From: an uncultured Boseongicola sp.
GTDB taxonomy: Bacteria > Actinomycetota > Acidimicrobiia > Spongiisociales > ZC4RG35
Assembly (NCBI GenBank): GCA_964194555.1
Contig: CAXMMT010000078.1
Location: forward strand, 10,576 to 74,575
Length of the DNA: 64,000 nt
Direction of reading: 5' to 3'
A program made the translations under genes and the position numbers. Below the pieces are notes generated by a model. That model worked only from the letters and a program-made list of their open reading frames with translations, ran no database searches and was not told the origin of the DNA. Shown here piece by piece: positions 2,771 to 46,037 of the stretch; the first letter of the stretch is position 1, and the number at the start of each line of letters is the position of its first letter.

Positions 2771-3910
2771 CTAGACGACCTCTCCTAGTTCCCTTCGGAC
2801 GATTGCAGCGCCCTCTGCAAGAGCATTCATTTTGGCCTGAGCGACTGGCCGCGACAGTGGAACCATTCCACAGTTGGTACACGGGTAGAGCTTCTCAGGC
2901 GCAATGTGCTCCAAGACTGCGCGGATCGTCTCTGCGACCTGCTCGGGTGTTTCCACGGCGTCGGTGGCAACGTCGATCACTCCGGCCAGCACTTCCTTAC
3001 CGTCCAGCATGTCCAGAAGTGCGAGCGGGACATTGGAGTTGGCGACTTCTATCGATATTTGGTCGATCGAAGACTCAGCCAGCACCGGGAAGGTCGACTC
3101 GTACTGACGCCACTCGTCTCCGAGACTTCGCTTCCACTCGATATTCGCCTTGATACCGTATCCGTAACAGATGTGAACGGCCGTAGTGACACTCAGTCCC
3201 TCAGCCGCTCGCTCCAAAGCTTCGATGCCCCAGCCAGCCACATCATCGAGAAAGACGTTGAAAGCCGGCTCATCGAACTGGATCAGGTCCACCCCGGCCA
3301 TCTCGAGCTCCCTGGCCTCCTCGTTGAGGATCTCAGCAAACACCATGGCCAACTCCTCACGATCGCCATAGAAGTCGTCGGCGAGAGTGTCTGACATGGT
3401 CATCGGACCGGGCAACTGGTATTTGATGGGCTGTTCGGTCAGCGATCTCAAGAACTTGGCGTCTTCCACATAGACACCCCGGCTACGGGACACCGGACCA
3501 ACCACTCTCGGCACAGACGCCTCATAACGCTGTCTGATGGTGATGTCAGCACGATTGTCCGAGTCGACACCTTCAAGACCTTCGATGAACGTCGTGACGA
3601 AGTGTTGTCTCGTTTGCTCGCCGTCCGTGATGACATCCAGTCCTGCTGCCTGCTGGTCAGCTACTGCGAGTCGGACAGCGTCATGTCTCGCCTCATCCAG
3701 CAATTCGCCCTCCGCCAACCAGTCGGCCCAGATCTGGTCAGGCGTGCTCAACCATCCTGGTTTGGGAAGACTCCCGGCGATTGTCGTGGAGAGAAGAGAA
3801 GTCACTGTGTTGCAGCTGGCGACGGTGTTGGAACGATGATCCGAGAGTAACCGGACCGCGGAACCTGCTGGTGAGTAGCGTACCGCGACCGTACTCATGT
3901 TGGAGAGCAC
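2771..3910 (-). CDS. Cobalamin-independent methionine synthase (MetE C-terminal domain-like) family protein
   Basis: TTIAGSLPKPGWL N-terminal motif, DVITDGE, and VHICYGY...NCGM C-terminal Zn-ligand region typical of MetE-like methyltransferases. The first ~35 codons are low-complexity, so the real start may be the GTG near 3805. Confidence 0.65.
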   Translation of the reverse strand: MLSNMSTVAVRYSPAGSAVRLLSDHRSNTVASCNTVTSLLSTTIAGSLPKPGWLSTPDQIWADWLAEGELLDEARHDAVRLAVADQQAAGLDVITDGEQTRQHFVTTFIEGLEGVDSDNRADITIRQRYEASVPRVVGPVSRSRGVYVEDAKFLRSLTEQPIKYQLPGPMTMSDTLADDFYGDREELAMVFAEILNEEARELEMAGVDLIQFDEPAFNVFLDDVAGWGIEALERAAEGLSVTTAVHICYGYGIKANIEWKRSLGDEWRQYESTFPVLAESSIDQISIEVANSNVPLALLDMLDGKEVLAGVIDVATDAVETPEQVAETIRAVLEHIAPEKLYPCTNCGMVPLSRPVAQAKMNALAEGAAIVRRELGEVV

Positions 3911-3961: not shown

Positions 3962-4261
3962 ATGGCGGCTTACCTGATTGCAGACGTACTACCCGAAGAT
4001 ATCGAGGCCTACAGAGCGAGTGGATATCCTGAAGCTGCGGTTGCTACTGCGAAGGCTCACGGTGGGGTCTACAGGGCTCGGGGCGGTGAGACAATTGTGC
4101 TGGAGGGTGATTGGGAGCCTGAGCGAATGGTGGTCATCGAGTTCCCCTCCATGGACCAACTCCTTGCCTGGTATTCCAGTCCCGAGTATCAGGAATGGGC
4201 GCCGGTTCGCCAGGGTTTTGCTCCGAACTCGAAGTTAGTGGCCCTGGAAGGTACTCCTTAG
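3962..4261 (+). CDS. DUF1330 family protein
   Basis: 99-aa ORF with GGAGG RBS 7 nt upstream. The sequence (YLIADVLPEDIEAYRASGYPEAAVATAKAHGGVYRARGGETIVLEGDWEP...VIEFPSMDQLLAWYSSPEYQEWAPVR) matches the DUF1330 pattern. Confidence 0.6.
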   Translation: MAAYLIADVLPEDIEAYRASGYPEAAVATAKAHGGVYRARGGETIVLEGDWEPERMVVIEFPSMDQLLAWYSSPEYQEWAPVRQGFAPNSKLVALEGTP

Positions 4262-4348
4262 GCCACCCCGAGGCCGGCGTTGGGCCCTTTTCCCGGGTCG
4301 AAAGGCCTGCCCTGTCAAGCGCTCCTCGCCAGACCGAGGCAGGTGCCC

Positions 4349-4514
4349 CAGTGGTCTGTCGCTCAATTGATGCCGCGGTGTCACCGAGTCATCTGCGTCA
4401 TCTGGCAAGGACGCACAACGAAGACGCAGCCTTAGCTGCGTCAAGGCGGAGGACGCCGCCAGGGGCGTCGAGGGCCGGTGAGACCGCGTAGCTATTTGGG
4501 CGACAGACCACTAG
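4349..4514 (-). repeat. MITE/REP-like ~168-bp element, copy 1 (inverted relative to copies 2 and 3), with 15-bp terminal inverted repeats
   Basis: The reverse complement is ~92% identical to 33796-33963 and 49937-50104. Termini are CTAGTGGTCTGTCGC ... GCGACAGACCACTAG. Confidence 0.75.
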
Positions 4515-4520: not shown

Positions 4521-5246
4521 CTACCTTCGCGATGAATCGACAGTATTCCGGCTGAGAAATTCGACAAGAAAATCGGCCACCAAAGAAGAGTCTGGCTCGA
4601 TGTCCAATGAGGCGACACCGTCGTCTGCGGTTTCAGACGGAAAAGTCGTTCCACGTCGAAGTTCGAAGAGGCTGCGTGCGAAGTCGAGATCCATCTCAGG
4701 GTGACCCTGGATGCCGAGCATGGAGGACCCCACAGTCATCGCCGAAACCGGGCAGTGATCGTTCCAGCCGATGATTCTTCCCCCCACCGGCAACTTCTCA
4801 ATCTGGTCTTGATGGCTGTTGATGAGACGGAACGAATCAACACCATCAGGCACGAAGCCCAGACCGTCGGCTAGTTGAACCGTCTTGACGCCAACCCCCC
4901 AACCTCTATCCGCCCTGACGACCGTGCCACCGAGTGACTTGGCCAGGAGCTGATGCCCGAAACAGACTCCGACAAGAGGAACACCTCCTGTCGCCGTCTT
5001 GCGTATGAACTCCTCCAAGCGACGGATCCACTCGAAGTCGTCATTCACCGAGTGTCGAGATCCCGTAATGAGCCAAGCATCACATTCGGCAGGACTCCAC
5101 GGAATCTCGCCGCTGACCGCGTCGTAAACAACCAGCTCCACCTCCGGGTGACCGGCCAGCAGCCTCCGAAACATCACGTCATTGTCCCCTGAGATCCCCG
5201 CCAGGTCAGGTGACACATGGTCGCAGACCAGAAGCCCCACCCTCAT
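4521..5246 (-). CDS. Class I glutamine amidotransferase-like protein (PuuD / gamma-glutamyl hydrolase-like)
   Basis: GVCFGHQLL catalytic Cys motif and HPE near the C-terminus. The likely start is MRVGLLVCDH at 5246; the longer track ORF has a low-complexity N-terminus. Confidence 0.7.
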   Translation of the reverse strand: MRVGLLVCDHVSPDLAGISGDNDVMFRRLLAGHPEVELVVYDAVSGEIPWSPAECDAWLITGSRHSVNDDFEWIRRLEEFIRKTATGGVPLVGVCFGHQLLAKSLGGTVVRADRGWGVGVKTVQLADGLGFVPDGVDSFRLINSHQDQIEKLPVGGRIIGWNDHCPVSAMTVGSSMLGIQGHPEMDLDFARSLFELRRGTTFPSETADDGVASLDIEPDSSLVADFLVEFLSRNTVDSSRR

Positions 5247-5266
5247 GTCGGAATCGGTTGGTGATT

Positions 5267-6046
5267 TCACTCGGGCGTCACGTATGCGGCGGTGATCCCA
5301 CCGTCGACCACGAACTCGGTTCCGGTTACATAAGACGACTCGTCCGAGGCGAGGTAGAGCGCAGCCTTTGCCATCTCGGCGGCCTCCCCGAACCGCCCCA
5401 TGGGAATGTGAACCAACCGTCTCTGTCTCTTCTCCTCGGTGTCGAGGAATTTCATCAACAGCCCGGTCTTCAACGGGCCGGGGCACAATGCGTTGACCCT
5501 GATGTTCTCTCTCGCATGGACCACGGCCAACTCCCGGGTCATGGCGAGAACTGCCCCTTTGGACGCGGTGTAAGCGATTTGAGGGGTTGCCGCGCCGAGA
5601 AGGGCCACGAATGAGGCCGTGTTGATGATCGACCCTCCTCCCGCTCGACGAAGAGCCGGGATCCCATACTTGCAGCCAAGAAAGACGCCCCTGGCGTTGA
5701 CTCCCATTGTGAAGTCCCAGGTGTCCTCTGCTGTTGACATCGCATCATCGTCTGCGGGATGCATGATGCCCGCGTTGTTGAACATGATGTCCAATCGGCC
5801 GTACAAACTCTCCGCCGAGGCCACCATCTCCTCACAGTCGCCGGCCGACGACACATCGGCCACTTGGGCCGTCGCGCTCCCTCCCGCGGCACCGACCATC
5901 TCCACCGTCTCCATGGCTGCTTCCTCGTTGATATCCGCTGCGACAACAGAAGCCCCCTCGGAGCAGAAAAGCAGCGTCGTCTCGCGCCCGATTCCCGAGC
6001 CGGCGCCGGTGATCAGCGCAACCTTCTGGCCCAGCCTGCCCGTCAT
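5267..6046 (-). CDS. SDR family NAD(P)-dependent oxidoreductase
   Basis: TGAGSGIG cofactor motif, NNAG, and YTASKGAV catalytic YxxxK. The start at 6046 overlaps the upstream stop by ATGA. Confidence 0.8.
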   Translation of the reverse strand: MTGRLGQKVALITGAGSGIGRETTLLFCSEGASVVAADINEEAAMETVEMVGAAGGSATAQVADVSSAGDCEEMVASAESLYGRLDIMFNNAGIMHPADDDAMSTAEDTWDFTMGVNARGVFLGCKYGIPALRRAGGGSIINTASFVALLGAATPQIAYTASKGAVLAMTRELAVVHARENIRVNALCPGPLKTGLLMKFLDTEEKRQRRLVHIPMGRFGEAAEMAKAALYLASDESSYVTGTEFVVDGGITAAYVTPE

Positions 6047-29222: not shown

Positions 29223-29537
29223 CTGGAAACACTCCGAAACGCCCGGGACTTTCGTAGAGTCCTGAGCAAAGGCAAGCGGAGCCGCAGCGGCGGAATCGTC
29301 CTGGTCGGGTCGCCAGGCCAACCAGGGCCTCCTCGTGTTGGGCTTGTTGTTTCCAGGGGCAGCGGAAACGCCGTGACTCGAAACCGTATCAAGAGACGGT
29401 TGCGTCACGCGGCCCGCGAACTGCCACTACAACCAGGAACGGATTACATCATCATCGCCAGCGGCCAGGTCTCAGAGGTCGACTACACCCAGGTGCAGAC
29501 ATGGCTCGACCGCGCCCTCGAGGGTGTGAAGAGATGA
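29223..29537 (+). CDS. rnpA: Ribonuclease P protein component
   Basis: LETLRNARDFRRVLSKGKRSRSGGIVLV...GNAVTRNRIKRRLRHAAREL matches RnpA. No canonical start was found within the 22 bp of frame examined upstream of 29223, so the start codon is uncertain. Confidence 0.7.
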   Translation: METLRNARDFRRVLSKGKRSRSGGIVLVGSPGQPGPPRVGLVVSRGSGNAVTRNRIKRRLRHAARELPLQPGTDYIIIASGQVSEVDYTQVQTWLDRALEGVKR

Positions 29538-29779
29538 TTGGGTGGCTACGTCCTCGGAACCTGATGGTTGGTCTGATCGGTATTTACCAGAAAGTGGTAA
29601 GTCCTGGAATTGGGACCAACTGCCGGTACCAGCCGACATGCTCATCGTATTCGGCGGAGGCAATCCAGAGATTTGGCGTGATTCGAGGGGGCTGGCTGGG
29701 TCTCAAGCGCATCGGAAGATGCCATCCTCTGCGCCCCGGGGGTTATGACCCTGTGCCTGATAACCGGAGAGCCCAATAA
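29534..29779 (+). CDS. yidD: Membrane protein insertion efficiency factor YidD
   Basis: YQKVVSPGIGTNCRYQPTCSSYSAEAIQRFG...RIGRCHPLRPGGYDPVP. The start overlaps the rnpA stop by ATGA. Confidence 0.75.
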   Translation: MIGWLRPRNLMVGLIGIYQKVVSPGIGTNCRYQPTCSSYSAEAIQRFGVIRGGWLGLKRIGRCHPLRPGGYDPVPDNRRAQ

Positions 29780-30636
29780 TGGGGGAGATATTCGACACGC
29801 TGATCAGGGCCCTGGGATCGGTCCTCGACTTCTACTTTGATCTACTCACACCACTTGTCAGTGACGGTTTGGCCTATGGCCTCGCAATCATCCTTCTCAC
29901 CATCACGATCAACGTGGTCGTTTTTCCACTCACCCTCAAACAGACCAGGGCGACGAGGGCGTTCACCGAGATTCAGCCAAAGATCAAGAAGATCCAGGCA
30001 GAATACAAGGACGACCCTCAGGAGATGCAGCGTCGTCTCATGGAGACCCAAAGGGCCGCGGGCGCCACACCCGGTGGATGTCTTCTTCCGCTTCTGGTCC
30101 AGATGCCGATCTGGTTTGCGCTCTTCCGGTTGCTCAGAGAGCCCGAGACTTATATCAGCGCCGATTCTGCGCTCGGAATGTCTTTGACCAATGGGGGCGT
30201 GGGCACGTTCTTGGGAATGATGCTTGGGGAGTCCCCATCAGCAGCGATGGCCAACGGCGTCTTGTACGCCATCCCCTATCTGTTGATGATTGCCTTCATG
30301 GTTGCCACCCAGTATGTGCAGATGTGGCACTCCACTTATGGCCAGGATCGGCCAGATCAGAAGGGCGCCGGGGCCCAACAGGCCATCACCAAGATAATGC
30401 CCCTGTTCATTGGTGTCATATCATGGAACTTCCCGGCGGGGTTGGTGCTCTACTGGACCACATCAAACCTGTTTCGTCTCGGACAGCAGGTTCTGATTTT
30501 CAAGATCGATGGGCGCCCAACCCCACCAAACAAGGCCGAACCAGAGCCGGATCAGGATGACGGCACTGATGGGAGCAAGCCAGGTAATCCGCAGCAGGGT
30601 GCCGCTGACAAGCGCCGTCGGCGCAGGAGGAGATGA
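29779..30636 (+). CDS. yidC: Membrane protein insertase YidC (short Gram-positive type)
   Basis: Five TM helices, the 60 kDa inner-membrane-protein motif, and a C-terminal basic tail RRRRRRR. Confidence 0.85.
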   Translation: MGEIFDTLIRALGSVLDFYFDLLTPLVSDGLAYGLAIILLTITINVVVFPLTLKQTRATRAFTEIQPKIKKIQAEYKDDPQEMQRRLMETQRAAGATPGGCLLPLLVQMPIWFALFRLLREPETYISADSALGMSLTNGGVGTFLGMMLGESPSAAMANGVLYAIPYLLMIAFMVATQYVQMWHSTYGQDRPDQKGAGAQQAITKIMPLFIGVISWNFPAGLVLYWTTSNLFRLGQQVLIFKIDGRPTPPNKAEPEPDQDDGTDGSKPGNPQQGAADKRRRRRRR

Positions 30637-30637
30637 C

Positions 30638-31504
30638 ATGGTCAATGTCGATATGGTCGAGGTGAAAGCCAAAACAGTGGAAATCGCCGTAGAAGCGGCG
30701 ATGCAAGAGCTGGGTATCGAGGACCGGGATGGTCTCGATGTCGAGATTGTGAACGCGCCGGTCAAGGGTTTCCTCGGAATTGGCGGTGAAGATGCGGTGG
30801 TCCGTGTCACCAGGAGAAAGGGCCGCCGTCGTCGTGGGGGACGCCGCACTGGCTCTTCGCAGGGGAAAGGGAGCCAGTCTGGTAAAGCAAAATCCGGCGA
30901 TCAGCAGCGCGGCTCTGCAAAATCAGGTAAGAATGGTTCCCGACAGCAACAAAACAAGCCGCCCAGGAACACCGGCGCGGCCCGCAAATCCGAGAGGAAA
31001 GAGAAGACCGTGAGTGATGACCGCCCGGTTCTATCCACCGAAGAACAGGCCAGGATTGCCCAGGAGTTTCTGGAGGGCTTGGTTGGGGCCTATGGTCTCG
31101 AGGGTGAGGTCACCACGACAGTGGACGACGGTGTCATCATTGCCGATGTCAGTGGTGAGCAAACCGAGGCCCTTGTCGGTGTTCGCGGGACGGTACGCGG
31201 CGCCATTCATGAGCTGACCAGGACGGTTCTACAGCGATATGGGCAGGAAACCGCCCGTCTCCGTCTCGATATCGCCGGCTACGCCGAACGACGTCGACAG
31301 GCACTCTCCATCTATGCCGAGCAGTTGATCGATCAACTAGACAGCGAAGGCGGAGAGATCATGCTGGAGCCGATGAGTCCGGCCGATCGCAAGGTAATAC
31401 ATGATGTAGCCTCGACCAAACCGGGAATCGAGTCCTATTCAGAAGGCGAACCACCAAGACGTTTTGTCGTGTTGTCCAAAGCGGGTTCCTCCGAAGAAGA
31501 ATAG
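30638..31504 (+). CDS. Jag/KhpB RNA-binding protein (KH + R3H domains)
   Basis: N-terminal Jag_N, basic low-complexity linker, KH domain, and R3H domain (IMLEPMSPADRKVIHDVAS). Sits after yidC. Confidence 0.75.
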   Translation: MVNVDMVEVKAKTVEIAVEAAMQELGIEDRDGLDVEIVNAPVKGFLGIGGEDAVVRVTRRKGRRRRGGRRTGSSQGKGSQSGKAKSGDQQRGSAKSGKNGSRQQQNKPPRNTGAARKSERKEKTVSDDRPVLSTEEQARIAQEFLEGLVGAYGLEGEVTTTVDDGVIIADVSGEQTEALVGVRGTVRGAIHELTRTVLQRYGQETARLRLDIAGYAERRRQALSIYAEQLIDQLDSEGGEIMLEPMSPADRKVIHDVASTKPGIESYSEGEPPRRFVVLSKAGSSEEE

Positions 31505-31520
31505 TCCAGCAACATCTCGG

Positions 31521-32159
31521 ATGAATAGCCGGAGAGCAATCTCGTGGCTACTTTGGTTTCACGTGGAACACAGTTACTGGACACGAGTAGGGGATCATGT
31601 CGGTCACGGGATCGATTCCTCACAGCTTGCCCAACTGATTGACTACCGAGACTGGCTTGTTGCCGAGGCCCTCCCGGTTGGCGGGATCGGCCCGGCGGAG
31701 GCGGTGAGGATCGACCGAAGGCATATCGCTGATTCACTACTTTTTGCGGCTCCGCTGCAGGACCCGGGTGAGATCTGGGATTTGGGCTCGGGTGCGGGTC
31801 TCCCTGGGATACCACTGGCCATCCTGTTTCCAGAGACCCCTGTGGTTCTCATCGATCGTTCCTCGCGGAGTGCCGATTTGATGAGACGGGCCGTGAGGAT
31901 TCTCGATTTGCCAAACGTGCGGGTGGAGCATCTTGATATCGATCGTTTGCGAGGAGACTCCCCTACGATTGTTTCCAGGGCGGCTTTGCCCCCAGAAAGG
32001 ATGCGCCGTGTGGTGACGAAGCATCTCGATCGTCAGGGAGTGGCGATCGTTGGTGGATCGTGGACAAGGAAGCCGAGCGCTCCGGGATGGGAGATACTAG
32101 AGATTCCACGCGATGTCCTTGACCATACGGTTTGGCTACTTATCATGCGTCGTCCATGA
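31521..32159 (+). CDS. rsmG: 16S rRNA (guanine527-N7)-methyltransferase
   Basis: SAM-binding motif DLGSGAGLPGIPLAI. The likely start is the ATG at 31521. Confidence 0.8.
   Translation: MNSRRAISWLLWFHVEHSYWTRVGDHVGHGIDSSQLAQLIDYRDWLVAEALPVGGIGPAEAVRIDRRHIADSLLFAAPLQDPGEIWDLGSGAGLPGIPLAILFPETPVVLIDRSSRSADLMRRAVRILDLPNVRVEHLDIDRLRGDSPTIVSRAALPPERMRRVVTKHLDRQGVAIVGGSWTRKPSAPGWEILEIPRDVLDHTVWLLIMRRP
31554..31569. promoter_or_regulatory. parS-like palindrome (14/16 match to TGTTTCACGTGAAACA)
   Basis: GGTTTCACGTGGAACA inside the 5' end of rsmG. Confidence 0.4.
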
Positions 32160-32941
32160 CGAAACCAACAGTGGTCGCCCTTGCCAACCAGAAGGGTGGG
32201 GTCGGCAAGTCGACAACGGCAATCAATCTGGCTGCCGCACTGGCATTCCAGGATCAGCGGGTGTTGCTCATCGACCTCGACCCACAAGGCAACGCCTCGA
32301 GTGGGCTTGGTATCGAACGTCGCAGTATCGAAGTATCGGTTTATGACGTCCTGCTCAAGGAGTCAGACATTGGCGATGCCATCGAACCGACCTCGGTGCG
32401 CAATCTCTTTGTGGTGCCGGCCACAATCGATCTGGCGGGCGCCGAGATCGAGTTGGTCTCGATGTTTTCACGTGAAACAAGACTGAAGACGGCGATCTCG
32501 GAGATTGATCAGGAATTCGACGTGGTGTTCATCGACTGTCCACCATCGTTGGGTCTGCTCACCGTCAATGCGCTTGCTGCTGCTGGTGAGGTGATGATAC
32601 CGATCCAATGTGAGTATTACGCCCTGGAAGGTCTCACCCAGTTGCTCAAGAACGTCGAATTGGTCACATCCAGTCTCAACCCGGCATTGAAGGTTTCTGG
32701 GGTGATTCTCACCATGTATGACGCTCGGACCAAGCTCTCCAAGGATGTCGCCTCCCAGGTTCGTGAATATTTTGGCGAGATTACTTACCGTACAGTCGTC
32801 CCCAGATCGGTTCGGCTCTCCGAGGCACCGTCTTACGGTGAGCCTATCGAGGCTTTTGACCCGATGAGCAGGGGGGCAATTGCCTATCGGCACCTCGGCA
32901 AGGAATTCATCGAACGGCATAACGTCGAAGAGGAGGATTAG
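32156..32941 (+). CDS. parA: Chromosome partitioning ATPase ParA (Soj)
   Basis: Deviant Walker A KGGVGKST. The start overlaps the rsmG stop by ATGA. Confidence 0.85.
   Translation: MTKPTVVALANQKGGVGKSTTAINLAAALAFQDQRVLLIDLDPQGNASSGLGIERRSIEVSVYDVLLKESDIGDAIEPTSVRNLFVVPATIDLAGAEIELVSMFSRETRLKTAISEIDQEFDVVFIDCPPSLGLLTVNALAAAGEVMIPIQCEYYALEGLTQLLKNVELVTSSLNPALKVSGVILTMYDARTKLSKDVASQVREYFGEITYRTVVPRSVRLSEAPSYGEPIEAFDPMSRGAIAYRHLGKEFIERHNVEEED
32464..32479. promoter_or_regulatory. parS site
   Basis: GTTTTCACGTGAAACA lies within parA. It matches 14/16 to TGTTTCACGTGAAACA and is a near-perfect palindrome around CACGTG. Confidence 0.6.
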
Positions 32942-32944
32942 GAG

Positions 32945-33799
32945 TTGAGCCCACGTAAGGCAGGTCTTGGCCGTGGTCTGGAGGCGCTGATACCAAGTGA
33001 GCCGGACGAGACCTCGGAGTCGGTATTACTTCAGGTTCCAGTTGATGAGATTGAGGCCAACCCGGATCAGCCGAGAAGCCGGTTCGATGACGTCTCGCTC
33101 GACGAGCTCTCCGCCTCGATAGAGGAAGTTGGCATTCTCCAGCCAATCGTGGTTACCCCTACCGACACCGGGTACACCCTTGTCGCCGGCGAGCGGAGGT
33201 GGCGAGCCGCCAAGCGTGCTGGACTAGATACGATTCCAGCCGTTACCCGAGAGGCTTCGGGTGATTCCACCCTTGTCGAGTCACTCGTGGAGAATGTACA
33301 GCGTCAAGATCTAACTCCCCTCGAAGAGGCACACGCCTATCGTCAACTCCTGGAAGATTTTGGAATGACACAGCAGCAGGTGGCTGATCGGGTCGGAAAG
33401 TCGCGTCCGGCCGTCTCCAATACCCTCCGTCTTCTGCAACTGCCAGGTCCGGTTCAGACATTGGTGGACGCCGGGCATCTCAGCGCTGGGGCTGCGAGGG
33501 CTCTCTTGGGGTTGGAGGATGAGAAGTACGTCATGTATCTGGCCGAGAAGGCACACGCAGAAGGATGGAGCGTGCGCCAGGTCGAGGAAGCAGTGCGCAC
33601 GCGGCGCGAGATGGAATCTCCAACCCGGAAGGAAAGCGTCCGTGTGGTACGGCCGGTGGAGATCATCGAGTTGGAGAAGCGATTGATCGAACGATTGGGG
33701 ACCAAGGTCAACATCAGCTATCGCAACGAGAGAGGCAAGGTCGAGATTCGATTTGGCTCAATCGAGGAGCTCGAGCACATCTATCGGGTCATCTCCTAG
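32945..33799 (+). CDS. parB: Chromosome partitioning protein ParB
   Basis: GERRWRAA arginine patch and an HTH. TTG start with AGGAG RBS. The TAG stop lies inside the left terminal repeat of the element at 33796. Confidence 0.85.
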   Translation: MSPRKAGLGRGLEALIPSEPDETSESVLLQVPVDEIEANPDQPRSRFDDVSLDELSASIEEVGILQPIVVTPTDTGYTLVAGERRWRAAKRAGLDTIPAVTREASGDSTLVESLVENVQRQDLTPLEEAHAYRQLLEDFGMTQQQVADRVGKSRPAVSNTLRLLQLPGPVQTLVDAGHLSAGAARALLGLEDEKYVMYLAEKAHAEGWSVRQVEEAVRTRREMESPTRKESVRVVRPVEIIELEKRLIERLGTKVNISYRNERGKVEIRFGSIEELEHIYRVIS

Positions 33800-33963
33800 T
33801 GGTCTGTCGCCCAAATAGCTACTCGGTCTCACCCGGCCCTCGACGCCCCTGGCGGCGTCCTCCGCCTCGACGCAGCTACGGCTGCGCCTTCATTGTGCGT
33901 CCTGGCCAGATGAGGCCGATGGCTCGGTGACACCGCGGCATCAATTGAGCGACAGACCACTAG
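33796..33963 (+). repeat. MITE/REP-like ~168-bp element, copy 2
   Basis: CTAGTGGTCTGTCGCCCAAATAGC ... CAATTGAGCGACAGACCACTAG, a 15-bp perfect terminal inverted repeat. It fills the parB-cwlM intergenic space. Confidence 0.75.
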
Positions 33964-33967
33964 CGTC

Positions 33968-34942
33968 CTACGGGCCGCCTCCCGAGGAACCGGAGGCAAG
34001 GAAGTCAGCCAGCCCCTCTACGACCGTCACCCCCAGACTCTCACTGAGATGACGACGTGAGATGACCGCGGCCGGAGCTCTCGTTTCTTTGAGCATTGCG
34101 CTTGCCCGACCTTCCACACGTCCGCCAACAACAGAAGAAAGAGACTTGGCCAGTTGCTCACCCGCTGCTGAGGTGCTGTGTTCGGTAGTGAAATAGAAAA
34201 CACAGTCTTCGTCCGACGGGTTGATTCGGAAGGCGATGATGAGATCCGATCCCATTCGGTTGGCTCGTCTCGCCCGGATACGCTCGGGCAGTTGGGTATC
34301 CTGACTCCTCGACATCATGGGGAGTCCTCCGGCGTCTTGGATCGCAATGGCGGCCCCGCTGGCGGCTGCCCAAGCCTGCCGGGTCTCGTGGGGGTCGCGA
34401 CAGCCGGCGTCGAGGTAGACCCTGGTCCCGGCGACGGTGGGAGGGAGTCTCCTCAGCCACTCTCTCTCCCGAAGAGCGTGACGTCCCTCCTTCATATCTC
34501 CTCTGCTCACGAGACGGATCTCGGTGACGACCTCCGGCCCTACTTTTCCATCTTCTGCCAGATTGCGATTGTGCTGGAAGTCGATCACCGCCGTCTCGGT
34601 GTCTGGTCCGAAGATCCCATCGGCTTTACCCGAGTCGAATCCAAGAGAGTTGAGACGTGACTGCAATTCGGCCACGTCCTCACCCCGAACCATCGGCCGA
34701 CGCATGTAGACGAGACGGTCACCAAGCCGATAGCCGGCCTCATATAGGGATCGCCAGGTATCGGGCCCGACGATTCCATCAACGTCCAGACCCTTCGCCT
34801 TCTGGAATGCCATCACAGCATCCAGTGTGAAGTCGCCAAAGACCCCCCGTACGTCGTCGGCTGATTCGAAGCCAAGCGCGGCAAGTCGATCCTGGATGTC
34901 CCGAATGGGAGGGCCCTCGTCACCGAGGCGAAATAGACGCAT
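33968..34942 (-). CDS. Peptidoglycan-binding-domain protein with N-acetylmuramoyl-L-alanine amidase (Amidase_3) domain (CwlM-like)
   Basis: Two PG_binding_1 repeats (DVDGIVGPDTW, GKADGIFGPDTETA) and an amidase_3-like C-terminus. Sits next to trxA-trxB as in mycobacteria. Confidence 0.7.
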   Translation of the reverse strand: MRLFRLGDEGPPIRDIQDRLAALGFESADDVRGVFGDFTLDAVMAFQKAKGLDVDGIVGPDTWRSLYEAGYRLGDRLVYMRRPMVRGEDVAELQSRLNSLGFDSGKADGIFGPDTETAVIDFQHNRNLAEDGKVGPEVVTEIRLVSRGDMKEGRHALREREWLRRLPPTVAGTRVYLDAGCRDPHETRQAWAAASGAAIAIQDAGGLPMMSRSQDTQLPERIRARRANRMGSDLIIAFRINPSDEDCVFYFTTEHSTSAAGEQLAKSLSSVVGGRVEGRASAMLKETRAPAAVISRRHLSESLGVTVVEGLADFLASGSSGGGP

Positions 34943-34978
34943 TGGCCGTCGATCTTAGGAAGACCCTGCACCAAGGGC

Positions 34979-35296
34979 TCAGATGTATTCGGCGAGCTCC
35001 TGCATCAGACGATGCTTGGGGGCAGCACCGACGATCCGCTTCTTCTCGACCCCATCCTTGAAGAGAATTAGCGTTGGGATGCTCATGACGTCGTGGGCGG
35101 CGGCGGTCTGCGGATTGTGATCAACGTCGAGTTTGCCGATATTGAAGCCATCATGCTCCTCAGCGATCTCCTCCAGAACAGGCGCAATCACCCGGCAGGG
35201 GCCGCACCATTCGGCCCAAAAGTCGACGAGGATGGGCGTCTCAGCGCTGATCTCATCATTGAAAGTCCCGTCGTTGAGGGTGCGAATTTCAGCCAT
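34979..35296 (-). CDS. trxA: Thioredoxin
   Basis: WCGPC active site; 105 aa. Confidence 0.9.
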   Translation of the reverse strand: MAEIRTLNDGTFNDEISAETPILVDFWAEWCGPCRVIAPVLEEIAEEHDGFNIGKLDVDHNPQTAAAHDVMSIPTLILFKDGVEKKRIVGAAPKHRLMQELAEYI

Positions 35297-35347
35297 GTCG
35301 GTTTCCTTCTCCTTGGTCTACCTCAGTGAACCTGACTCACTGATAGG

Positions 35348-36271
35348 TCATTCCTGGTGTGCCAGCCATCGTTCGGCATCGATGGCAGCCATACAGCCTG
35401 TTCCCGCCGCCGTCACAGCTTGGCGGTATACGTGGTCGGCAACGTCACCAGCAGCGAAAACACCTTCGACCGAGGTGTGTGTTCCGCCGCTGTCTGCGAT
35501 TATGAGATAACCGTTTTCGTCGAGATCCAACTTGTCCACGAAGAGGTCGGTCGTGGGCTTGTGTCCGATCGCGACGAACACGCCATCGATTGCCATCTCC
35601 GAGGACTCCCCGGTAACGGTGTCCTCGAGCGTCACCCCGGAGACGAGATCGTCACCATGGATCTCAGTCACGATCGAGTTCCACCTCATCTCGATCTTGT
35701 CGTTCGCTTCAGCGCGAGCGGCCATGATCTTGGAGGCTCGCAACTCATCTCGTCGATGTATGACGGTTACTTTGGAGGCGAATTTGGTCAGGAACAAGGC
35801 CTCTTCCATTGCAGTGTCTCCGCCACCGACGACGATCAGTTCCTTATCCCGGAAGAAGAATCCGTCACATGTTGCACATGCGGAGACGCCCTTGCCGGTG
35901 AGCTTATCCTCACCCGGGACACCGAGCCATGTTGCTGAGGCACCCGTGGCGATGATGACGGCGTCGGCTGTGTACTCGTCGGCTCCGACGTTGATCCTGA
36001 AGGGTCTCGTGGAGAAGTCGACTTCGGTCACATCGACTTGATGGAGCCTCGTTCCGAATCTCTCAGCCTGCTTTCGAAACTGGTCCATCAGTTCTGGTCC
36101 CAGGATCCCGTCAGGAAATCCAGGATAGTTCTCGACGTCGGTTGTGATCATGAGTTGACCACCGGCCAACACGCCCTCGAAGACGATCGGATTGAGATCG
36201 GCGCGTGCGGCGTACAGCGCTGCGGTGAGACCTGCCGCGCCTGATCCGATAATCACCAACTTTTCATGCAT
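35348..36271 (-). CDS. trxB: Thioredoxin-disulfide reductase
   Basis: GSGAAG FAD motif, CATCDG redox-active disulfide, and NADPH motif GGGDTAMEEA. Start at MHEKLVIIG. Confidence 0.9.
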   Translation of the reverse strand: MHEKLVIIGSGAAGLTAALYAARADLNPIVFEGVLAGGQLMITTDVENYPGFPDGILGPELMDQFRKQAERFGTRLHQVDVTEVDFSTRPFRINVGADEYTADAVIIATGASATWLGVPGEDKLTGKGVSACATCDGFFFRDKELIVVGGGDTAMEEALFLTKFASKVTVIHRRDELRASKIMAARAEANDKIEMRWNSIVTEIHGDDLVSGVTLEDTVTGESSEMAIDGVFVAIGHKPTTDLFVDKLDLDENGYLIIADSGGTHTSVEGVFAAGDVADHVYRQAVTAAGTGCMAAIDAERWLAHQE

Positions 36272-36546
36272 TATTCTTCCTCGATCCTCTTGAACCAGAA
36301 GTAGCCGCCCACTCCAAGAAGCAGAGCTCCCAGGACAGCGAATGCTCCTGCAGTGGCGAGCGGAATCTCCAGTGCCCCGAAGATTGCCCACGACAGGAAT
36401 ATCAACGCGGTCAACGCCATTGCCAGCGTCAGGATTCCCAGTCCGGTGAGCTTGATGCCATAGGCGACCCGGTCGACAGTCATTGCCCGGACCTTCTGTG
36501 CAATCTGCTCGAGGAGTTCGGCGAATTTGATGGCGTATTCGTGCAT
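36271..36546 (-). CDS. Small membrane protein (actinobacterial holin-X-like / DUF)
   Basis: 91 aa with two TM helices and an amphipathic N-terminus. Ends immediately before trxB. Confidence 0.5.
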   Translation of the reverse strand: MHEYAIKFAELLEQIAQKVRAMTVDRVAYGIKLTGLGILTLAMALTALIFLSWAIFGALEIPLATAGAFAVLGALLLGVGGYFWFKRIEEE

Positions 36547-42924: not shown

Positions 42925-43683
42925 TCAGGTCTTGTATCGAAGTATTCGAAGAGTGGTGCCGGTCGGCATGAATCCCTCTTTCGAATACAACCGACGGGCC
43001 TGGACATTCTCCTCGCGAACGTTGAGAACCATTGTCTGTGCGGACTTCTCACGAGCCCATTGCAGGGCTGCTCTCACGAGCTCAGAACCGATGTTCTTGC
43101 CACGGTGCTCGGAATGAACAGCGATGCGCTGAAGATAGGAGACGCTCCATTGGGCACCCACGATCGCGTACCCGGTAGCTCTGGTTTCCCCCACGGTCAG
43201 GACCACCGATCGGGTTGTCGAAGACATCGCCTCGGTCAGCCCGTCAACGCTCATTCTCCAGAATCCCTGGAAAGCGTGGCGGTCGATCTCGATGAGGGCG
43301 TCCCAATCCGGCTTCTCGGACTCGACGACCAATGAGGCCGGAGTCGACCTGTTCGATATCACTGGACGCTCCATCACATTGAGACGAAAGACTTCCTCAT
43401 ACCCGCACTTCAGCCAGACCCGGGTCGATGACCTATACAAGGCGGGCGAGTACACCGACGCCTGGCTCAGATCGACCAGATCCTCCGAGGCAGCTGTCAG
43501 AAAGTCACTGCTTCCCCGATCGAGTCTGAGAAAGGCGTCGGGTGTGTCGTCGTTCCACAACCTGGCACTGGCACGTGCCCACCCCCGGGAAAGTGTGACG
43601 GGTGCGGGCCAACGACCTTCGATACGGAGCCGGTGGGACACGTGTGGGAGAATATAACCATGCAGGTTGTTGTTGCGAGCCAC
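42925..43683 (-). CDS. GNAT family N-acetyltransferase (start uncertain; possibly internal M at 43374)
   Basis: Acetyl-CoA binding motif QRIAVHSEHRGKNIGSELV. The longest ORF would overlap the divergent deacetylase start. Confidence 0.55.
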   Translation of the reverse strand: MARNNNLHGYILPHVSHRLRIEGRWPAPVTLSRGWARASARLWNDDTPDAFLRLDRGSSDFLTAASEDLVDLSQASVYSPALYRSSTRVWLKCGYEEVFRLNVMERPVISNRSTPASLVVESEKPDWDALIEIDRHAFQGFWRMSVDGLTEAMSSTTRSVVLTVGETRATGYAIVGAQWSVSYLQRIAVHSEHRGKNIGSELVRAALQWAREKSAQTMVLNVREENVQARRLYSKEGFMPTGTTLRILRYKT

Positions 43684-44670
43684 CCTTCATCGTTGCAGCA
43701 CGACACGGGTCGCAATCATCCGGAGCGACCCGATCGAGTGCTGGCGGTTCGTCGGGGAATTGACGGATGTGGTCTAGACATCGTCGACATCGAGTCCCCA
43801 GAGATTCAGCGAAGCCAGCTCGCCGTCGTTCACGATGCCTCCTACATCGAGATGGTCGAGATGTTCTGCTCGCTGAGTGGGGGAGCCCTCGACATGGACA
43901 CCGTTGTGTCCGAGGAGTCGTGGCAGGCTGCCCTGACCGCAGCCGGGGGCGTTTGGGCGCTCATCGAGGAGTTGAGAACACGGCCCGACGCAACTGGTTT
44001 CGCCATATCGAGACCTCCCGGGCACCACGCTTTTCGCGATCGGGCCATGGGATTCTGTCTGTTCAACAACATTGCAGTCTCGGCGGCTCTGCTGCGCTCA
44101 CATGGGGAGAGGGTGGCGATTCTCGACTGGGATGTCCATCATGGAAACGGAACCCAATCGATGCTTGCCGATGATCCTGGGGTGCTGTACGTATCGATCC
44201 ATCAGGATCCGTTCTATCCGTTTGACGGCCATATCCGGGATATTGATGAGGGAGCTGCAAAGGGCACCACAGTCAACATCCCTCTGCCGGCGGGCACCGC
44301 GGGGGATGTCTACCGTCTTGCGTGGGGAGAGTTGGTGATTCCTGTTGTGAGGCAATTCGAGCCCGACTGGGTGCTCATCAGCGCCGGATTTGACGCCCAC
44401 ATCGATGACTCGCTGGGGGAGTTTCAACTCATGTCGAGCGACTTCGGCTGGTTGGCTGGGGCGGTCGCCGAAGCCCATCCGGTGAGCCGGGTGGTGGCGA
44501 CTCTGGAGGGCGGTTACGACCTGGACGCGCTGGAGCAGTCCACCATCGCCACCCTCATGGGTCTGGCGGGCATTGCTCCGATATCGAATGAGACGCGGGT
44601 TTCGCCGCCCGCGGCAGGGCAGGCGGTGGACAGAGCGGCACAAGCAATAGTGCGCCACTGGAAGGTGTGA
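43660..44670 (+). CDS. Histone deacetylase superfamily protein (acetoin utilization AcuC / acetylpolyamine amidohydrolase-like)
   Basis: RPPGHHA, DWDVHHGNGTQ, and SAGFDAH zinc-binding motifs. Confidence 0.8.
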   Translation: MQVVVASHPSSLQHDTGRNHPERPDRVLAVRRGIDGCGLDIVDIESPEIQRSQLAVVHDASYIEMVEMFCSLSGGALDMDTVVSEESWQAALTAAGGVWALIEELRTRPDATGFAISRPPGHHAFRDRAMGFCLFNNIAVSAALLRSHGERVAILDWDVHHGNGTQSMLADDPGVLYVSIHQDPFYPFDGHIRDIDEGAAKGTTVNIPLPAGTAGDVYRLAWGELVIPVVRQFEPDWVLISAGFDAHIDDSLGEFQLMSSDFGWLAGAVAEAHPVSRVVATLEGGYDLDALEQSTIATLMGLAGIAPISNETRVSPPAAGQAVDRAAQAIVRHWKV

Positions 44671-44957
44671 ATCGAATCTTGGACCCCGGATAGGACACTT
44701 TCAGAGCACTAGTGCTCTGGCCACGAACGTTGGCGATGTTGAGGGCGAGGCGGAGGCGTCTCTGACAAGGACGCAGGACGAAGGCGCACCGGCCCGTTCG
44801 TCGAGGACGAGGACACGGTCAGGGGCGTCACTGGACGTCCTGAACGCGGCAAACGTTTGTGGTCGGGGCACTAGTCAACTGCGGAGAGGTCATCCTTTCC
44901 CTCTCAACCTTGGTGCCGATCAGCCGATAACCACCGAGGACTCATCAGGGAAGGACT

Positions 44958-46037
44958 ATGGAAAGCAATATCGACGATCTTCTTGGACGCGCCGTCGCTG
45001 CGGGAGCTTCCGACTTCCATCTCAAGGTTGGGTCGGCGCCCATCGTTCGAATCGACGGAGAGCTGCGAAGACTGGACGGCATAGAGCCACTGCGTCCCTC
45101 TGATACAGAGGCCTACGCCGAGGTCATATTCACTCCAAAAGCAGCAGACGACTTCAAGACGGTTGGCACTGCCGATTTTGCGTATGGAAAGCATGAATTG
45201 GGACGGTTCCGGGTTACAGCGTTCAGACAGCGTGGCTCGGTCTCGATGGTCCTACGGAGGGTCGTGCCTGGCTCCAGAAGCTTCGCCGAGTTGGGGTTGC
45301 CCCGGATTGTCGAAAAGTTGGCCGCCGCCAAATCCGGTCTCGTTCTGGTGACTGGTCGATCCGGGTCAGGCAAGACCACGACCATTTCTTCGATGCTCGA
45401 CTGGATCAATTCCAATCGTGGAGCTGCCATTCTCACCGTCGAGGATCCGATTGAAGTCCTGCATCCCGACAAGCGCTCGGTGGTCGTGCAGCGCGAAGTC
45501 GGGGTCGACACGCCCAACATGGCAGAGGCGGTCCGGGGGGCCATGCGACACGACACGGATGTGATCATGGTCTCTGAGCTATCTGATCCGGAAACGGCCC
45601 GAGTGGCGATCGACGCTGCCGAGACAGGGCATTTGGTCATTTCTTCGATGAGAACCACCGATCCGGCAGAGACTGTCAGTCGGCTCGTATCGATGTTTCC
45701 CGACTCGCAGAAGGCAGTGATTCGGAGCCAACTGGCCGCTCAGCTACAGGCGATCATCAGCCAGCTTCTAGTTGAGACTTCGGACTCCGGGGTAACTCTT
45801 GTCTGTGAGATCCTCACGAACAATGAGAGAACACAGGAGTGGATCATGGGTGGTGAGGAGGCCTCCTTCCTCGTCGAAGTGATCAAGGACAGCGGCTTTC
45901 ATGGCATGCAGACCTTCGATCAAGCGCTGCTCAAGCAGGTCGTCGACCGCAAGGTCGAGATCGACTCTGCACTGCCTCACGCACGCAATTCCCACGAGAT
46001 GAAGGCCAAGGCGCTCGCCGCAGGCATCTCGGCCTGA
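44958..46037 (+). CDS. pilT: PilT-like type IV pilus retraction ATPase (PilT/PilU family)
   Basis: PilT N-terminal domain, Walker A GRSGSGKTTT, Asp box AILTVEDPIE, and His box GHLVISSMRTT. Confidence 0.75.
   Translation: MESNIDDLLGRAVAAGASDFHLKVGSAPIVRIDGELRRLDGIEPLRPSDTEAYAEVIFTPKAADDFKTVGTADFAYGKHELGRFRVTAFRQRGSVSMVLRRVVPGSRSFAELGLPRIVEKLAAAKSGLVLVTGRSGSGKTTTISSMLDWINSNRGAAILTVEDPIEVLHPDKRSVVVQREVGVDTPNMAEAVRGAMRHDTDVIMVSELSDPETARVAIDAAETGHLVISSMRTTDPAETVSRLVSMFPDSQKAVIRSQLAAQLQAIISQLLVETSDSGVTLVCEILTNNERTQEWIMGGEEASFLVEVIKDSGFHGMQTFDQALLKQVVDRKVEIDSALPHARNSHEMKAKALAAGISA

Follow-up and report, generated by a model that had tools for sequence, protein, structure and literature searches.

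The Nezha elements of cyanobacteria are MITEs of about 100–160 bp with inverted ends, TA flanks and a long hairpin, and the Correia elements of Neisseria have TA as their target. We know of no description, for Correia/NEMIS or Nezha, of strand-asymmetric covariation or of a reshuffling of ends and cores. In the Bacillus cereus group, MIC231 elements hold passenger genes without a transposase between IS-type inverted ends. The family described here resembles MIC231 in that its cassettes bracket passenger genes without a transposase, but MIC231 has the ends of IS231 (IS4 family), whereas the ends found here are of the IS630 type with TA flanks. Correia/NEMIS elements are also similar in being about 100–160 bp long, in having inverted ends and in forming long hairpins when transcribed; in the case of Correia, RNase III processes these RNA hairpins (PMC2229807).

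RUP, a MITE of 107 bp that targets TA, has been attributed to IS630-Spn1 (PMC2229807). Repeats of this kind in pneumococcus are over-represented between convergent genes and are able to provide stop codons (PMC3049150). The present repeats share with RUP a small non-coding body, IS630-like inverted ends that pair into a duplex, insertion at TA and enrichment between convergent genes (PMC2229807, PMC3049150). They differ from it in host phylum, sequence and length (165 bp here). The preference for CTAG and the reconstitution of TAG are explicit in the present family, which also has gene cassettes and several end classes around one core, while an identical-ended partner IS was not found for it in the loci searched. 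MITEPsy1 of Pseudomonas syringae, which is IS5-related, is likewise a small MITE at CTAG targets (PMC3189936); it duplicates 4 nt, whereas the present family keeps the TA only, with outer bases that are independent of each other. According to PMC2170065, IS630-family elements duplicate TA, as the biochemistry of ISY100 indicates, and IS630 of Shigella sonnei prefers the TA in 5′-CTAG-3′ (Tenzen and Ohtsubo 1991, as cited there); the repeats described here appear to be alike in both respects. About 30 bp of each end are sufficient for the transposition of ISY100, which fits the mini forms of 45–50 bp in the present family. Unlike the copies in the window (the whole stretch of 64,000 nucleotides that was analysed), which lack a transposase, IS630 and ISY100 are autonomous elements of 0.95–1.15 kb.

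Copies of the repeat in the window

The initial annotation of the window had described three copies of a repeat bounded by CTAG, about 92–95% identical and without coding capacity. All three were found at the places given for them (Table 1), at about 165 bp each, the start of copy 3 being shifted to 49938 from 49937 (its left end is TTAGTGATCTGTCGC = TTAGTGATC). When compared with copy 2 by blastn, copy 3 was 95.2% and copy 1 was 94.0% identical, and the global pairwise identities among the three ranged from 92.8 to 94.6%. Stops were present in all six frames of copies 1–3, and the ORFs 4195–4491 and 33565–33930, which had been called spurious, exist as mechanical ORFs only. Some details held for part of the copies. 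Perfect CTAG…CTAG ends are a property of copy 2 but not of copies 1 and 3, whose left ends differ (CCAG at 4348–4351 in copy 1). The central hairpin GCAGC-TACG-GCTGC was recovered in copies 2 and 3, but copy 1 has GCAGC-TAAG-GCTGC in the same orientation, which reads GCAGC-CTTA-GCTGC on the + strand of the window.

Table 1. Repeat elements in the window and the genes next to them (positions are those of the window).
Feature	Position	Strand	Remarks
MITE copy 1, class-1 ends	4348–4514	+	element proper 4351–4511; nhmmer E = 1.1e-50
MITE copy 2, class-1 ends	33796–33963	−	element proper 33799–33960; perfect CTAG at both ends
MITE copy 3, class-1 ends	49938–50104	−	element proper 49941–50101
Solo end fragment GCGACAGACCAT	49927–49938	.	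1 mismatch to the end sequence
Fourth, diverged element	44709–44874	+	nhmmer E = 3.5e-14, profile positions 46–151
DUF1330 gene	3962–4261	+	one side of copy 1
GATase gene	4521–5486	−	other side of copy 1; TAG stop 6 nt from the element
parB	32945–33799	+	Pfam ParB_N, HTH_ParB, ParB_C
Peptidoglycan-binding-domain gene	33968–34942	−	convergent with parB
Xaa-Pro aminopeptidase gene (PepP)	48471–49922	+	precedes the solo end and copy 3
HlyIII-family gene	50101–50763	−	TAG stop made of the final base of copy 3 and the TA
Tandem genes on either side of the fourth element	43633–44670 and 44958–46037	+	

While these three copies stand, the count of three was too low. The additional, diverged element has the same core of about 95–105 nt as copies 1–3, but class-2 inverted ends instead (TAGTGCTCTGGCCACGAACGTT … AACGTTTGTGGTCGGGGCACTA), with CTAG flanks on both sides; its overall identity to copies 1–3 is about 65%. 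In the class-1 copies the element proper measures 161–162 bp, and inverted ends of 12–21 bp (GTGGTCTGTCGC-Y-CAA-W-T) surround a G+C-rich core, the ends GTGGTCTGTCGC(Y)CAA(W)T agreeing at 19 of 21 positions. With up to three mismatches allowed, the 15-mer CTAGTGGTCTGTCGC was found 8 times, compared with 1.97 ± 1.52 times in shuffled sequences, none of which (0/100) reached 8. The copies sit in both orientations, at non-coding positions; the better-folding strand, read from the A end to the B end, is + for copy 1, and it is the − strand for copy 2.

Target site

TA is present on both sides of the intact copies of the family, and a few ends have decayed (to CA, TG or GA). Within the window, copy 2 has its TA duplications at 33797–33798 and 33961–33962 and copy 3 has TA at 49939–49940 and 50102–50103, while in copy 1 the right TA is kept (4512–4513) and the left one has become CA (4349–4350). 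The bases outside the TA are mostly C on the left and G on the right, so that most ends read C-TA…TA-G. In such canonical copies a duplication of 2 bp and one of 4 bp are indistinguishable, because CTAG is palindromic. Seven non-canonical copies have the left/right outer bases C/A, C/A, C/C, G/G, T/G, G/A and T/G, with the inner TA-G and C-TA constant. The outer bases thus vary independently on each side, which argues for a 2-bp duplication of TA at a preferred CTAG and not for a 4-bp duplication of CTAG. Empty sites in relatives have a single TA. The pairs of filled and empty sites are consistent with TA duplication, short of proof since the relatives are at 94–96% protein identity and the flanks carry small indels.

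Stop codons of the adjacent genes

The first base of the element is G and its last base is C, so each flanking TA reads TAG together with the element. As the initial annotation had it, the stop of parB (33797–33799) is composed of the target TA and the first G of copy 2, and that of the HlyIII gene (50101–50103, − strand) of the last C of copy 3 and the TA. The PepP stop (49920–49922) is followed by GTGA and then by the solo end, also in agreement with that annotation. The solo end with its TA (49927–49940) thus begins 4 nt past this stop and abuts copy 3 through a common TA, and a nested or repeated insertion, as suggested earlier, is plausible. Elements that abut at one common TA recur at loci L049, L056 and L060, and abutting remnants like the solo end at L060 and L036/L056.

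In relatives the stop of the peptidoglycan-binding gene overlaps that of parB, and in the relative L111 parB ends at the same codon position with TAA. The PepP and HlyIII stops were predicted to have once overlapped on the target TA; this prediction failed, the relatives showing a spacer of 18–22 nt. Over the whole family, 40 of 108 element ends have a terminal TAG that closes an open frame of 100 codons or more; the two control frames gave 36 of 216. CTAG is scarce in the window, which has 40 sites where a Markov model predicts 75 and a zero-order one 233. None of 33 copies lay between divergent genes.

Occurrence in other genomes, empty sites and remnants

The copy count and the search for empty sites that had been proposed as a check both gave positive results. 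The repeats are dispersed: the 20-mer end pattern was found in 66 other genome-assembly stretches, nearly all of them Acidimicrobiia MAGs, and on at least 13 contigs of a single MAG (CAZRID01). There was no match on plasmids when the element was used in blastn, and viral contigs gave 0 matches to the end pattern; the end sequence, searched as a text string in papers, returned unrelated primer matches only.

The site of copy 2 is empty in L111, whose ParB is 96% identical (…ATCTCC-TA-AGCG), and in L102–L110 (87–88%). That of copy 3 is empty in L113 (PepP 94% identical) and L114 (82%). At the parB stop, locus L112 has TAGTGTCACTAG, which looks like an excision footprint. Counting this one, four remnants of the form TAGTG-N0–6-CACTA were found, against 0–2 for each of six control palindromes.

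The family has size forms of about 165, 75–80 and 45–50 bp, in addition to solo ends; such a deletion series with solo ends is typical of MITE families. Lone ends, for example those at L011, L021, L034, L043 and L063, are solo or truncated: the ORFs adjoining them were considered as transposases and rejected, being host-like by sequence reading. Gene-carrying cassettes of about 640–920 bp are bounded by the same ends and occur in several different flanks, with a DinB/MDMPI_N-like or an Imm5-like gene as passenger; none of these cassettes lies within the window.

A related insertion sequence with a transposase

A regular expression for YSPxLNPIE, the classic IS630 motif, returned no transposase when run on all loci translated in six frames. 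The result was falsely negative: at this place the actinobacterial subgroup carries HASWLNQVE. By tblastn with a hand-written DDE_3 consensus, validated on plasmid IS630 transposases, an IS of 1157 bp was found at locus L049. It codes for a protein of 356 aa with DDE_3 (E = 4.8e-26) and HTH_32, HTH_28, HTH_23 and HTH_29, the HTH-HTH-DDE architecture of the IS630 and ISY100 transposases. The IS is flanked by TA, one TA being common to it and a MITE copy, and it belongs to CAZRID01, the MAG that carries the MITE end pattern. Its transposase type has 5238 homologues at E ≤ 1e-40. P0242, a transposase 88% identical to that of L049, is carried as C-TA-[GTGC…GCAC]-TA-G in at least 5 different flanks, so the related IS has CTAG/TA insertion sites of its own.

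The ends of the MITE are homologous to those of this IS630-family IS. The MITE B end scored 11 against the right end of the IS, compared with 3.4 ± 1.8 for shuffled sequences (3/2000 reached the score); the A end scored 8 against the left end (3.5 ± 1.7; 59/2000), and the class-3 MITE end scored 12 against the right end (3.4 ± 1.6; 1/1000). The similarity is distant (a TA-GTG…CGC pattern) for the Acidimicrobiia and Streptomyces IS630 relatives that were examined, the ends of the IS copies (L049, L118–L127) matching those of the MITE at 10–12 of the first 20 bases without being identical. IS630 relatives of Streptomyces and Kitasatospora also have ends that read …GCAGCAC-TA-G. An IS with exactly the MITE ends (TA-GTGGTCTGTCGC) was not found in about 0.8 Mb of loci. 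The protein family of L049 and P0242 is a candidate transposase for the MITE ends. It may be noted that two types of partner had been proposed: IS630/Tc1 fits, having homologous ends and the same CTAG target, but IS200/IS605 is at odds with the inverted-repeat ends and the TA duplication of the element.

Folding of the core and classes of ends

Each of copies 1–3 forms a long hairpin, the core pairing from end to end. In the folding check suggested by the initial annotation, copy 2 gave a whole-element hairpin of −99.6 kcal/mol on the − strand (z = −8.1) and −87.1 kcal/mol on the + strand (z = −6.5). In the consensus hairpin, which is made of 48 pairs, 95.5% of the cells are paired, compared with 33–45% for slid controls. 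Compensatory changes on both sides were seen in 20 of these pairs, against 8.5 ± 1.4 in shuffles (0/500 reached 20). In all 23 aligned copies the same strand folds better, by about 22 kcal/mol on average; RNAalifold gave −58.8 and −27.3 kcal/mol for the two strands, with 123 G-U and 18 A-C cells. The asymmetry is also present in class-2 and class-3 elements, the fourth element of the window folding at −91.1 kcal/mol on the + strand and −64.2 kcal/mol on the − strand.

One core was found with three unrelated classes of end, and when core variants were set against end classes all four combinations were seen, the copies with other than class-1 ends numbering only about 5. The A end adjoins the 3′ end of a gene in 21 of 26 cases, and in tandem contexts 7 copies are co-oriented against 3; with genes called by our own crude caller, this is a trend that does not reach significance (7 vs 3; 21/5 vs 14/8). 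No Rfam family matched the element at the gathering score or at E ≤ 1, and no canonical U tract follows the long hairpin. In actinobacteria, however, a terminator may do without a U tract. The only terminator-like motif, on one strand of copies 1–3, is the central 6-bp hairpin with CCTTCGTTGT after it; this is the other strand than that of the long hairpin, and motifs of this kind were fewer than in shuffled sequences.

Discussion

We consider it highly probable that the repeats are a MITE of the IS630/Tc1-mariner type, native to uncultured Acidimicrobiia. The suggestion that they are a non-autonomous element that targets or recreates CTAG/TAG is borne out by the multiple copies, the empty sites, the TA flanks and the IS630 relative. 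As a kind of element it is ordinary; the family is new, and tidy. Mobilisation in trans, and which transposase is the exact partner, are inferred, and the copies are presumably mainly selfish and near-neutral rather than functional.

An IS630-family transposase with two helix-turn-helix domains and a DDE_3 domain, encoded elsewhere in the genome, would bind the ends, excise the element and insert it into a TA, preferably inside CTAG, with duplication of the TA. TAG would then arise from the left TA on the top strand and from the right one on the bottom strand. If the insertion falls on the TA of a stop codon (TAA or TAG), the protein would end at the same residue as before, and at a TA common to two overlapping convergent stops both proteins would be unchanged in their last residue. 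Rebuilding TAG at each end would let the element sit on gene ends harmlessly. As CTAG is rare in the genome, a sizeable share of CTAG sites would be stop codons and selection would remove insertions inside genes, the surviving copies are expected to pile up at 3′ ends and between convergent genes.

Plain cut-and-paste of double-stranded DNA leaves the covarying hairpin, the strand asymmetry and the three end classes without a reason, and the core may be subject to more than simple parasitism. The core could be a functional structured module for which the transposon ends are a mere vehicle: an RNA hairpin that ends or stabilises the upstream transcript, an insulator of convergent genes, or a single-stranded DNA structure, with copies being kept, or the core being repeatedly recaptured, on account of a function. 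This reading is compatible with that of a MITE, and the compensatory pairs, the constancy of the better-folding strand, the excess of G-U over A-C cells, the sharing of one core by unrelated ends and the position of the A end at gene 3′ ends speak for it. Against it, related sequences can exceed shuffle controls without structural constraint, and MITEs that are palindromic occur widely and are mostly taken to be selfish. The missing Rfam match and U tract, the scarcity of the terminator-like motif and its place on the opposite strand, the orientation bias that is not significant and the few copies with other ends all weigh in the same direction; we hold it to be possible but doubtful. The more specific claim, that the G+C-rich core of about 95–105 nt is a selected, strand-specific module which has been repeatedly picked up or exchanged by different IS630-type ends, seems to us unlikely. 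If it were true, the core could be an RNA hairpin at transcript 3′ ends, an insulator between convergent genes or a structure that aids the element itself, and the family would be more than a decayed IS: a modular hairpin cassette whose transposon ends are interchangeable.

The remaining readings concern the nature of the ends and are far less probable. CTAG at both ends of most copies recalls an IS5- or IS701-type MITE that duplicates the 4-bp CTAG (YTAR), such as MITEPsy1, with CTAG or YTAA as its target and a duplication of 4 nt (PMC3189936), but the left and right 4-mers differ in seven out of seven non-canonical copies and the ends are homologous to IS630-family and not to IS5-type IS; this is very improbable. 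We rate as equally improbable a REP/REPIN repeat that depends on a RAYT, a Y1 tyrosine transposase, for its movement, or a palindromic element derived from IS200/IS605 that transposes as single-stranded DNA. Long imperfect hairpins, compensatory changes, strand asymmetry, an extragenic position that is often between convergent genes and a GTGG motif near the end would all suit such an element. It is contradicted by the symmetric inverted ends, the TA on both sides and its apparent duplication, the use of the same ends by gene-carrying cassettes and the homology of the ends to DDE_3 IS; furthermore, no Y1 transposase was seen among the ORFs next to ends that were inspected or Pfam-scanned. The REP-type structural repeat that had been offered as an option is likewise not supported, since no single end is a palindrome in itself and the element has TA flanks. 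The models of 4-bp duplication, REP/RAYT and IS200/IS605 were rejected on the TA flanks, the variable outer bases and the IS630-like ends. Segmental duplication, which the initial annotation had named as the outcome that would speak against a mobile element, and chance similarity are both refuted: the copies are not a segmental duplication, because similarity ends exactly at their boundaries and the flanks are unrelated, and the stretches in other genomes, the empty sites at orthologous loci and the shuffles of the end motif point the same way.

Taken as an IS630-type MITE, the family offers a clean example of an end sequence that would make insertion into a stop codon harmless, as the TA is duplicated and the element gives the G, on both strands. 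Such stop-preserving ends would let the element wedge between convergent genes with overlapping stops. Should they be confirmed on larger samples, the cassettes and the covarying, strand-biased core with different ends would make the family useful for studying whether selection for function acts on MITE cores. Since copies differ among relatives at 94–96% protein identity, they are usable as strain markers in metagenomes. Automatic and six-frame gene callers can be expected to produce spurious Arg/Pro-rich ORFs across the copies. Short-read assemblies break at the copies, as in two short-read contigs of the window's own strain (L001 and L101) that both end inside copy 2, and Acidimicrobiia MAGs would gain in quality from a model of the family.

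The repeat copies in the window

The three repeat stretches reported in the initial annotation were present at the places claimed, with sequences that matched the description, except that copy 3 starts at 49938 and not at 49937. Pairwise identities among copies 1–3 were 92.8–94.6%; by blastn, copies 3 and 1 were 95.2% and 94.0% identical to copy 2, respectively. When the copies were aligned with 20 nt of flank per side, the flanks were unrelated and the similarity was confined within the element boundaries, which refutes segmental duplication. The 15-mer end sequence (up to 3 mismatches) occurred 8 times in the window, compared with 1.97 ± 1.52 in shuffles. The CTAG bounds claimed for every copy were perfect at both ends in copy 2 only; the left bound is CCAG in copy 1 and TTAGTGATC in copy 3. 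The stops of parB (33797–33799) and of the HlyIII gene (50101–50103) do lie inside element ends. After the PepP stop (49920–49922) come, as described, GTGA and then the solo end GCGACAGACCAT-TA, which abuts copy 3. The copies lack coding capacity, stops being present in all six frames. The whole element is predicted to form a single long hairpin (for copy 2, -99.6 kcal/mol with z = -8.1 on one strand and -87.1 kcal/mol with z = -6.5 on the other), and Rfam gave no match for the element. A profile built from 23 copies revealed a fourth, diverged element that was absent from the earlier list.

Coordinates of the elements and related features (L numbers denote loci fetched from other assemblies)
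Feature	Location	Size	Remarks
Copy 1	window 4348–4514	~165 bp
Copy 2	window 33796–33963	~165 bp
Copy 3	window 49938–50104	~165 bp
Fourth element	window 44709–44874		between two tandem + strand genes; CTAG both sides; inverted ends TAGTGCTCTGGCCACGAACGTT...
Terminator-like central hairpin	window 33871–33886 (+), 50012–50027 (+), 4442–4423 (-)		followed by CCTTCGTTGT or TTCGTTGT
IS630-family IS	L049 99–1255	1157 bp	CAZRID010000202.1 (Acidimicrobiaceae MAG); flanked by TA within CTAG
DinB/MDMPI_N-like gene cassette	L018 2817–3685; L065 3063–3982	~870–920 bp	differing flanks
Further cassette loci, listed with L018 and L065	L069, L072, L077, L078, L084, L086, L094		many metagenome contigs
Imm5-like gene cassette	L052 3361–4000	~640 bp
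Cassette with uncharacterised 165-aa ORF	L083 165–881	717 bp

Target site and empty sites

Intact elements carry TA at both ends, a few ends having decayed (e.g. CA at the left of copy 1). Just outside the TA, the left-hand base is usually C and the right-hand base usually G, which yields CTAG...CTAG. Because CTAG is palindromic, a 2-bp and a 4-bp duplication look the same in canonical copies. They are distinguished by seven non-canonical copies (outer bases C/A, C/A, C/C, G/G, T/G, G/A and T/G), in all of which the two outer 4-mers differ while TA-G...C-TA is constant. A 4-bp CTAG duplication, as found for the IS5-related MITEPsy1 (PMC3189936), was rejected on this ground; duplication of TA with a preference for CTAG fits the copies. 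According to a reference cited in PMC2170065, IS630 prefers TA within 5'-CTAG-3', and the references and ISY100 biochemistry in that source have IS630-family elements duplicating TA.

The parB site and the PepP/HlyIII site were both found free of the element in relatives. In L111 (ParB 96% identical) the parB site reads ...GGGTCATCTCC-TA-AGCGCCGCC; there the TAA of parB and the TAG of the convergent peptidoglycan-binding gene, on the other strand, share the TA in a 4-nt overlap, CTAA (2572–2575). The site also lacks the element in L102–L110 (87–88%), where the two genes overlap by 11 nt near 3345–3355. In L112 (ParB 89% identical), TCC-TAGTGTCACTAG-TCG lies exactly at the parB stop (1804–1815). 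This TAGTGTCACTAG (TA-GTG-T-CAC-TA) resembles the footprint that excision of an element with GTG...CAC ends would leave, and is at most suggestive of one. Four footprint-like remnants were counted in the fetched DNA, against 0–2 for control palindromes; remnants of this kind lie in L040 and L060. Copy 3 is absent from L113 (94%) and L114 (82%), and in L113 the HlyIII stop makes CTAG exactly at the position of copy 3. An original overlap of the PepP and HlyIII genes at this site was considered and rejected, as the relatives have a spacer of 18–22 nt. The flanks at empty sites show small indels. The filled/empty pairs, which are non-isogenic, are consistent with TA duplication.

An IS630-family relative

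A first search, with a regular expression for the classic IS630 motif, gave no match. A hand-written DDE_3 consensus was then run on plasmids, where it matched 920 records; those annotated were IS630-family transposases, which validated the consensus as a probe. In all the fetched DNA it matched a single gene, that of the IS in L049. The encoded transposase (356 aa) has DDE_3 (E = 4.8e-26) together with HTH_32, HTH_28, HTH_23 and HTH_29. The two ends of the IS read TAGTGCTTTCTCGCATTAATTACACGCGTG and TAGTGCAGCCGCGCAGAAGTAGTACGCGTG, the latter reverse-complemented. The IS shares the TA on its right with a MITE copy, and at least 13 contigs of the same MAG carry the MITE end pattern. For P0242, an 88%-identical transposase, 10 places were fetched (L118–L127, at least 5 different flanks). 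All had ends of the form C-TA-[GTGC...GCAC]-TA-G; hence the target preference equals that of the MITE. The nearest plasmid-borne relatives, IS630-family elements of Streptomyces and Kitasatospora (57–58% identical), likewise end ...GCGGAGCAGCAC-TA-G.

The B end of the MITE scored 11 against the right end of the IS, compared with 3.4 ± 1.8 for shuffled sequences (3/2000 reached this score), and the A end scored 8 against the left end of the L049 IS, compared with 3.5 ± 1.7 (59/2000). By this comparison, the homology of the MITE ends to those of the IS extends past the TAGTG that they share, without the two being identical. Of the autonomous partner envisaged in the initial annotation, a relative was recovered, an IS630-family IS with homologous ends, but no IS with exactly the MITE's ends occurred among the fetched loci. 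Taken with the TA/CTAG target and the empty sites, this homology bears out the main reading of the initial annotation, a non-autonomous transposable element. We consider it very probable that the repeats are a MITE of the IS630/Tc1-mariner type, the family being new and its kind already known, and that its stop-codon habit comes from its target and terminal bases.

Spread of the family and its size forms

A scan for further copies, covering one genome per species, found TAGTGGTCTGTCGCYCAAWT in 66 stretches, nearly all of them from Acidimicrobiia MAGs, with up to 13 or more contigs from single MAGs. The ParB and PepP homologues having source names were also from Acidimicrobiia MAGs. The viral contigs and plasmids searched gave no match to the element. 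In the window's own strain, two short-read contigs stop ~24–36 nt into copy 2, as is expected of an assembler at a repeat.

The family forms a deletion series of ~160–165 bp (like the window copies), ~75–80 bp and ~45–50 bp. The last are hardly more than two ends, and solo ends are many. Outside the window only, MITE ends also bracket small cassettes without a transposase (Table), which resemble mobile insertion cassettes. It may be noted that in L033 a YfbU-domain gene adjoins a lone end.

Stop codons and gene context

The first base of the element proper is G and its last is C, so that a gene whose TAA or TAG gave the target TA would still end at the same residue. After insertion, TAG would be read at the left TA on the top strand and at the right TA on the bottom one. 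The association with stop codons is explained by the target (TA in CTAG) and these terminal bases. At 40/108 fetched ends, the terminal TAG closed a reading frame that was open for 100 codons or more, compared with 36/216 in the other two frames. Of 33 copies placed with our own crude gene caller, 6 had convergent neighbours, 10 had tandem neighbours and none had divergent ones; for the rest, a gene was called on one side at most. The same distribution has been described for the repeats of pneumococcus, the IS630-related RUP among them, and these too can supply stop codons (PMC3049150, PMC2229807); the habit is therefore a tidy instance of an established pattern. CTAG is strongly depleted in the window, with 40 sites where trinucleotides predict 75 and base composition 233, and several of the 40 are stop codons. 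TTAA is almost missing (2 sites), and TA occurs 1111 times against 2638 expected.

Covariation and strand bias of the hairpin

In an alignment of 23 distinct ~165-bp copies from several subfamilies, the consensus hairpin had 48 pairs. Paired cells amounted to 95.5%, compared with 87.4% in shuffles and 33–45% with partners slid, and 20 pairs showed changes on both sides (8.5 ± 1.4 in shuffles). The strand starting TAGTGGTCTGTCGCTCAATTGATGCC folded better in 23/23 copies, the mean advantage being 21.9 kcal/mol under RNA parameters and 10.9 kcal/mol under DNA parameters; RNAalifold gave -58.8 against -27.3 kcal/mol for the other strand. G-U cells numbered 123 and A-C cells 18. Such a bias is not needed by a double-stranded cut-and-paste mechanism. 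Orientation with respect to neighbouring genes showed no significant preference (tandem, 7 co-oriented and 3 opposed). The sole terminator-like motif, a small central hairpin of 6–8 bp found in all three copies, is opposite to the better-folding strand; no part of the core varies less than the adjoining ACGAAGGCGCA. In an alignment of the window copies and 20 loci, many copies from other MAGs had systematically unlike ends, one being GTGGTCTGTCGC and the opposite one GTGGCCCGTCGC, giving T-G wobble pairs on one strand and C-A mismatches on the other. Both ends of the window's copies are of the GTGGTCTGTCGC type.

The core is also found with other ends. Class-2 ends (TAGTGCTCTGGCCAC...) occur on the fourth window element and on a partial copy in L041. 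Class-3 ends (TAGGGCAGCCTCGCGGAAGTTCG...), again unrelated, occur on a 164-bp element in L112 (2839–3003), whose core is ~95% identical to the class-1 core of the window; the class-3 end resembled the IS630 right end significantly, scoring 12 against it compared with 3.4 ± 1.6 in shuffles. The core and the fold asymmetry are common to all three end classes (-91.1 vs -64.2 kcal/mol, + and - strands of the fourth element; -92.7 vs -64.5). Class-1 ends were seen with both core variants, X and Y, class-3 ends with X and class-2 ends with Y, the copies outside class 1 being only ~5. This pattern points to a reshuffling of ends and cores, which is plausible because each element end recreates the CTAG target and elements often abut, as in window copy 3, L049, L056 and L060. 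The only feature that might make the family more than an ordinary one is the covarying, strand-biased core with its several end classes; that it does so seems to us unlikely, though conceivable.

Other features of the window

The order yidC, jag, rsmG, parA, parB, convergent peptidoglycan-binding gene, thioredoxin and thioredoxin reductase at ~29500–36400, taken from gene calls in L102–L110, is typical of the surroundings of an actinobacterial replication origin. No clear GC-skew switch was seen in the window. The sole Rfam or ARAGORN match in the window was a tRNA-Gly (anticodon CCC) at 60473–60546 (-).
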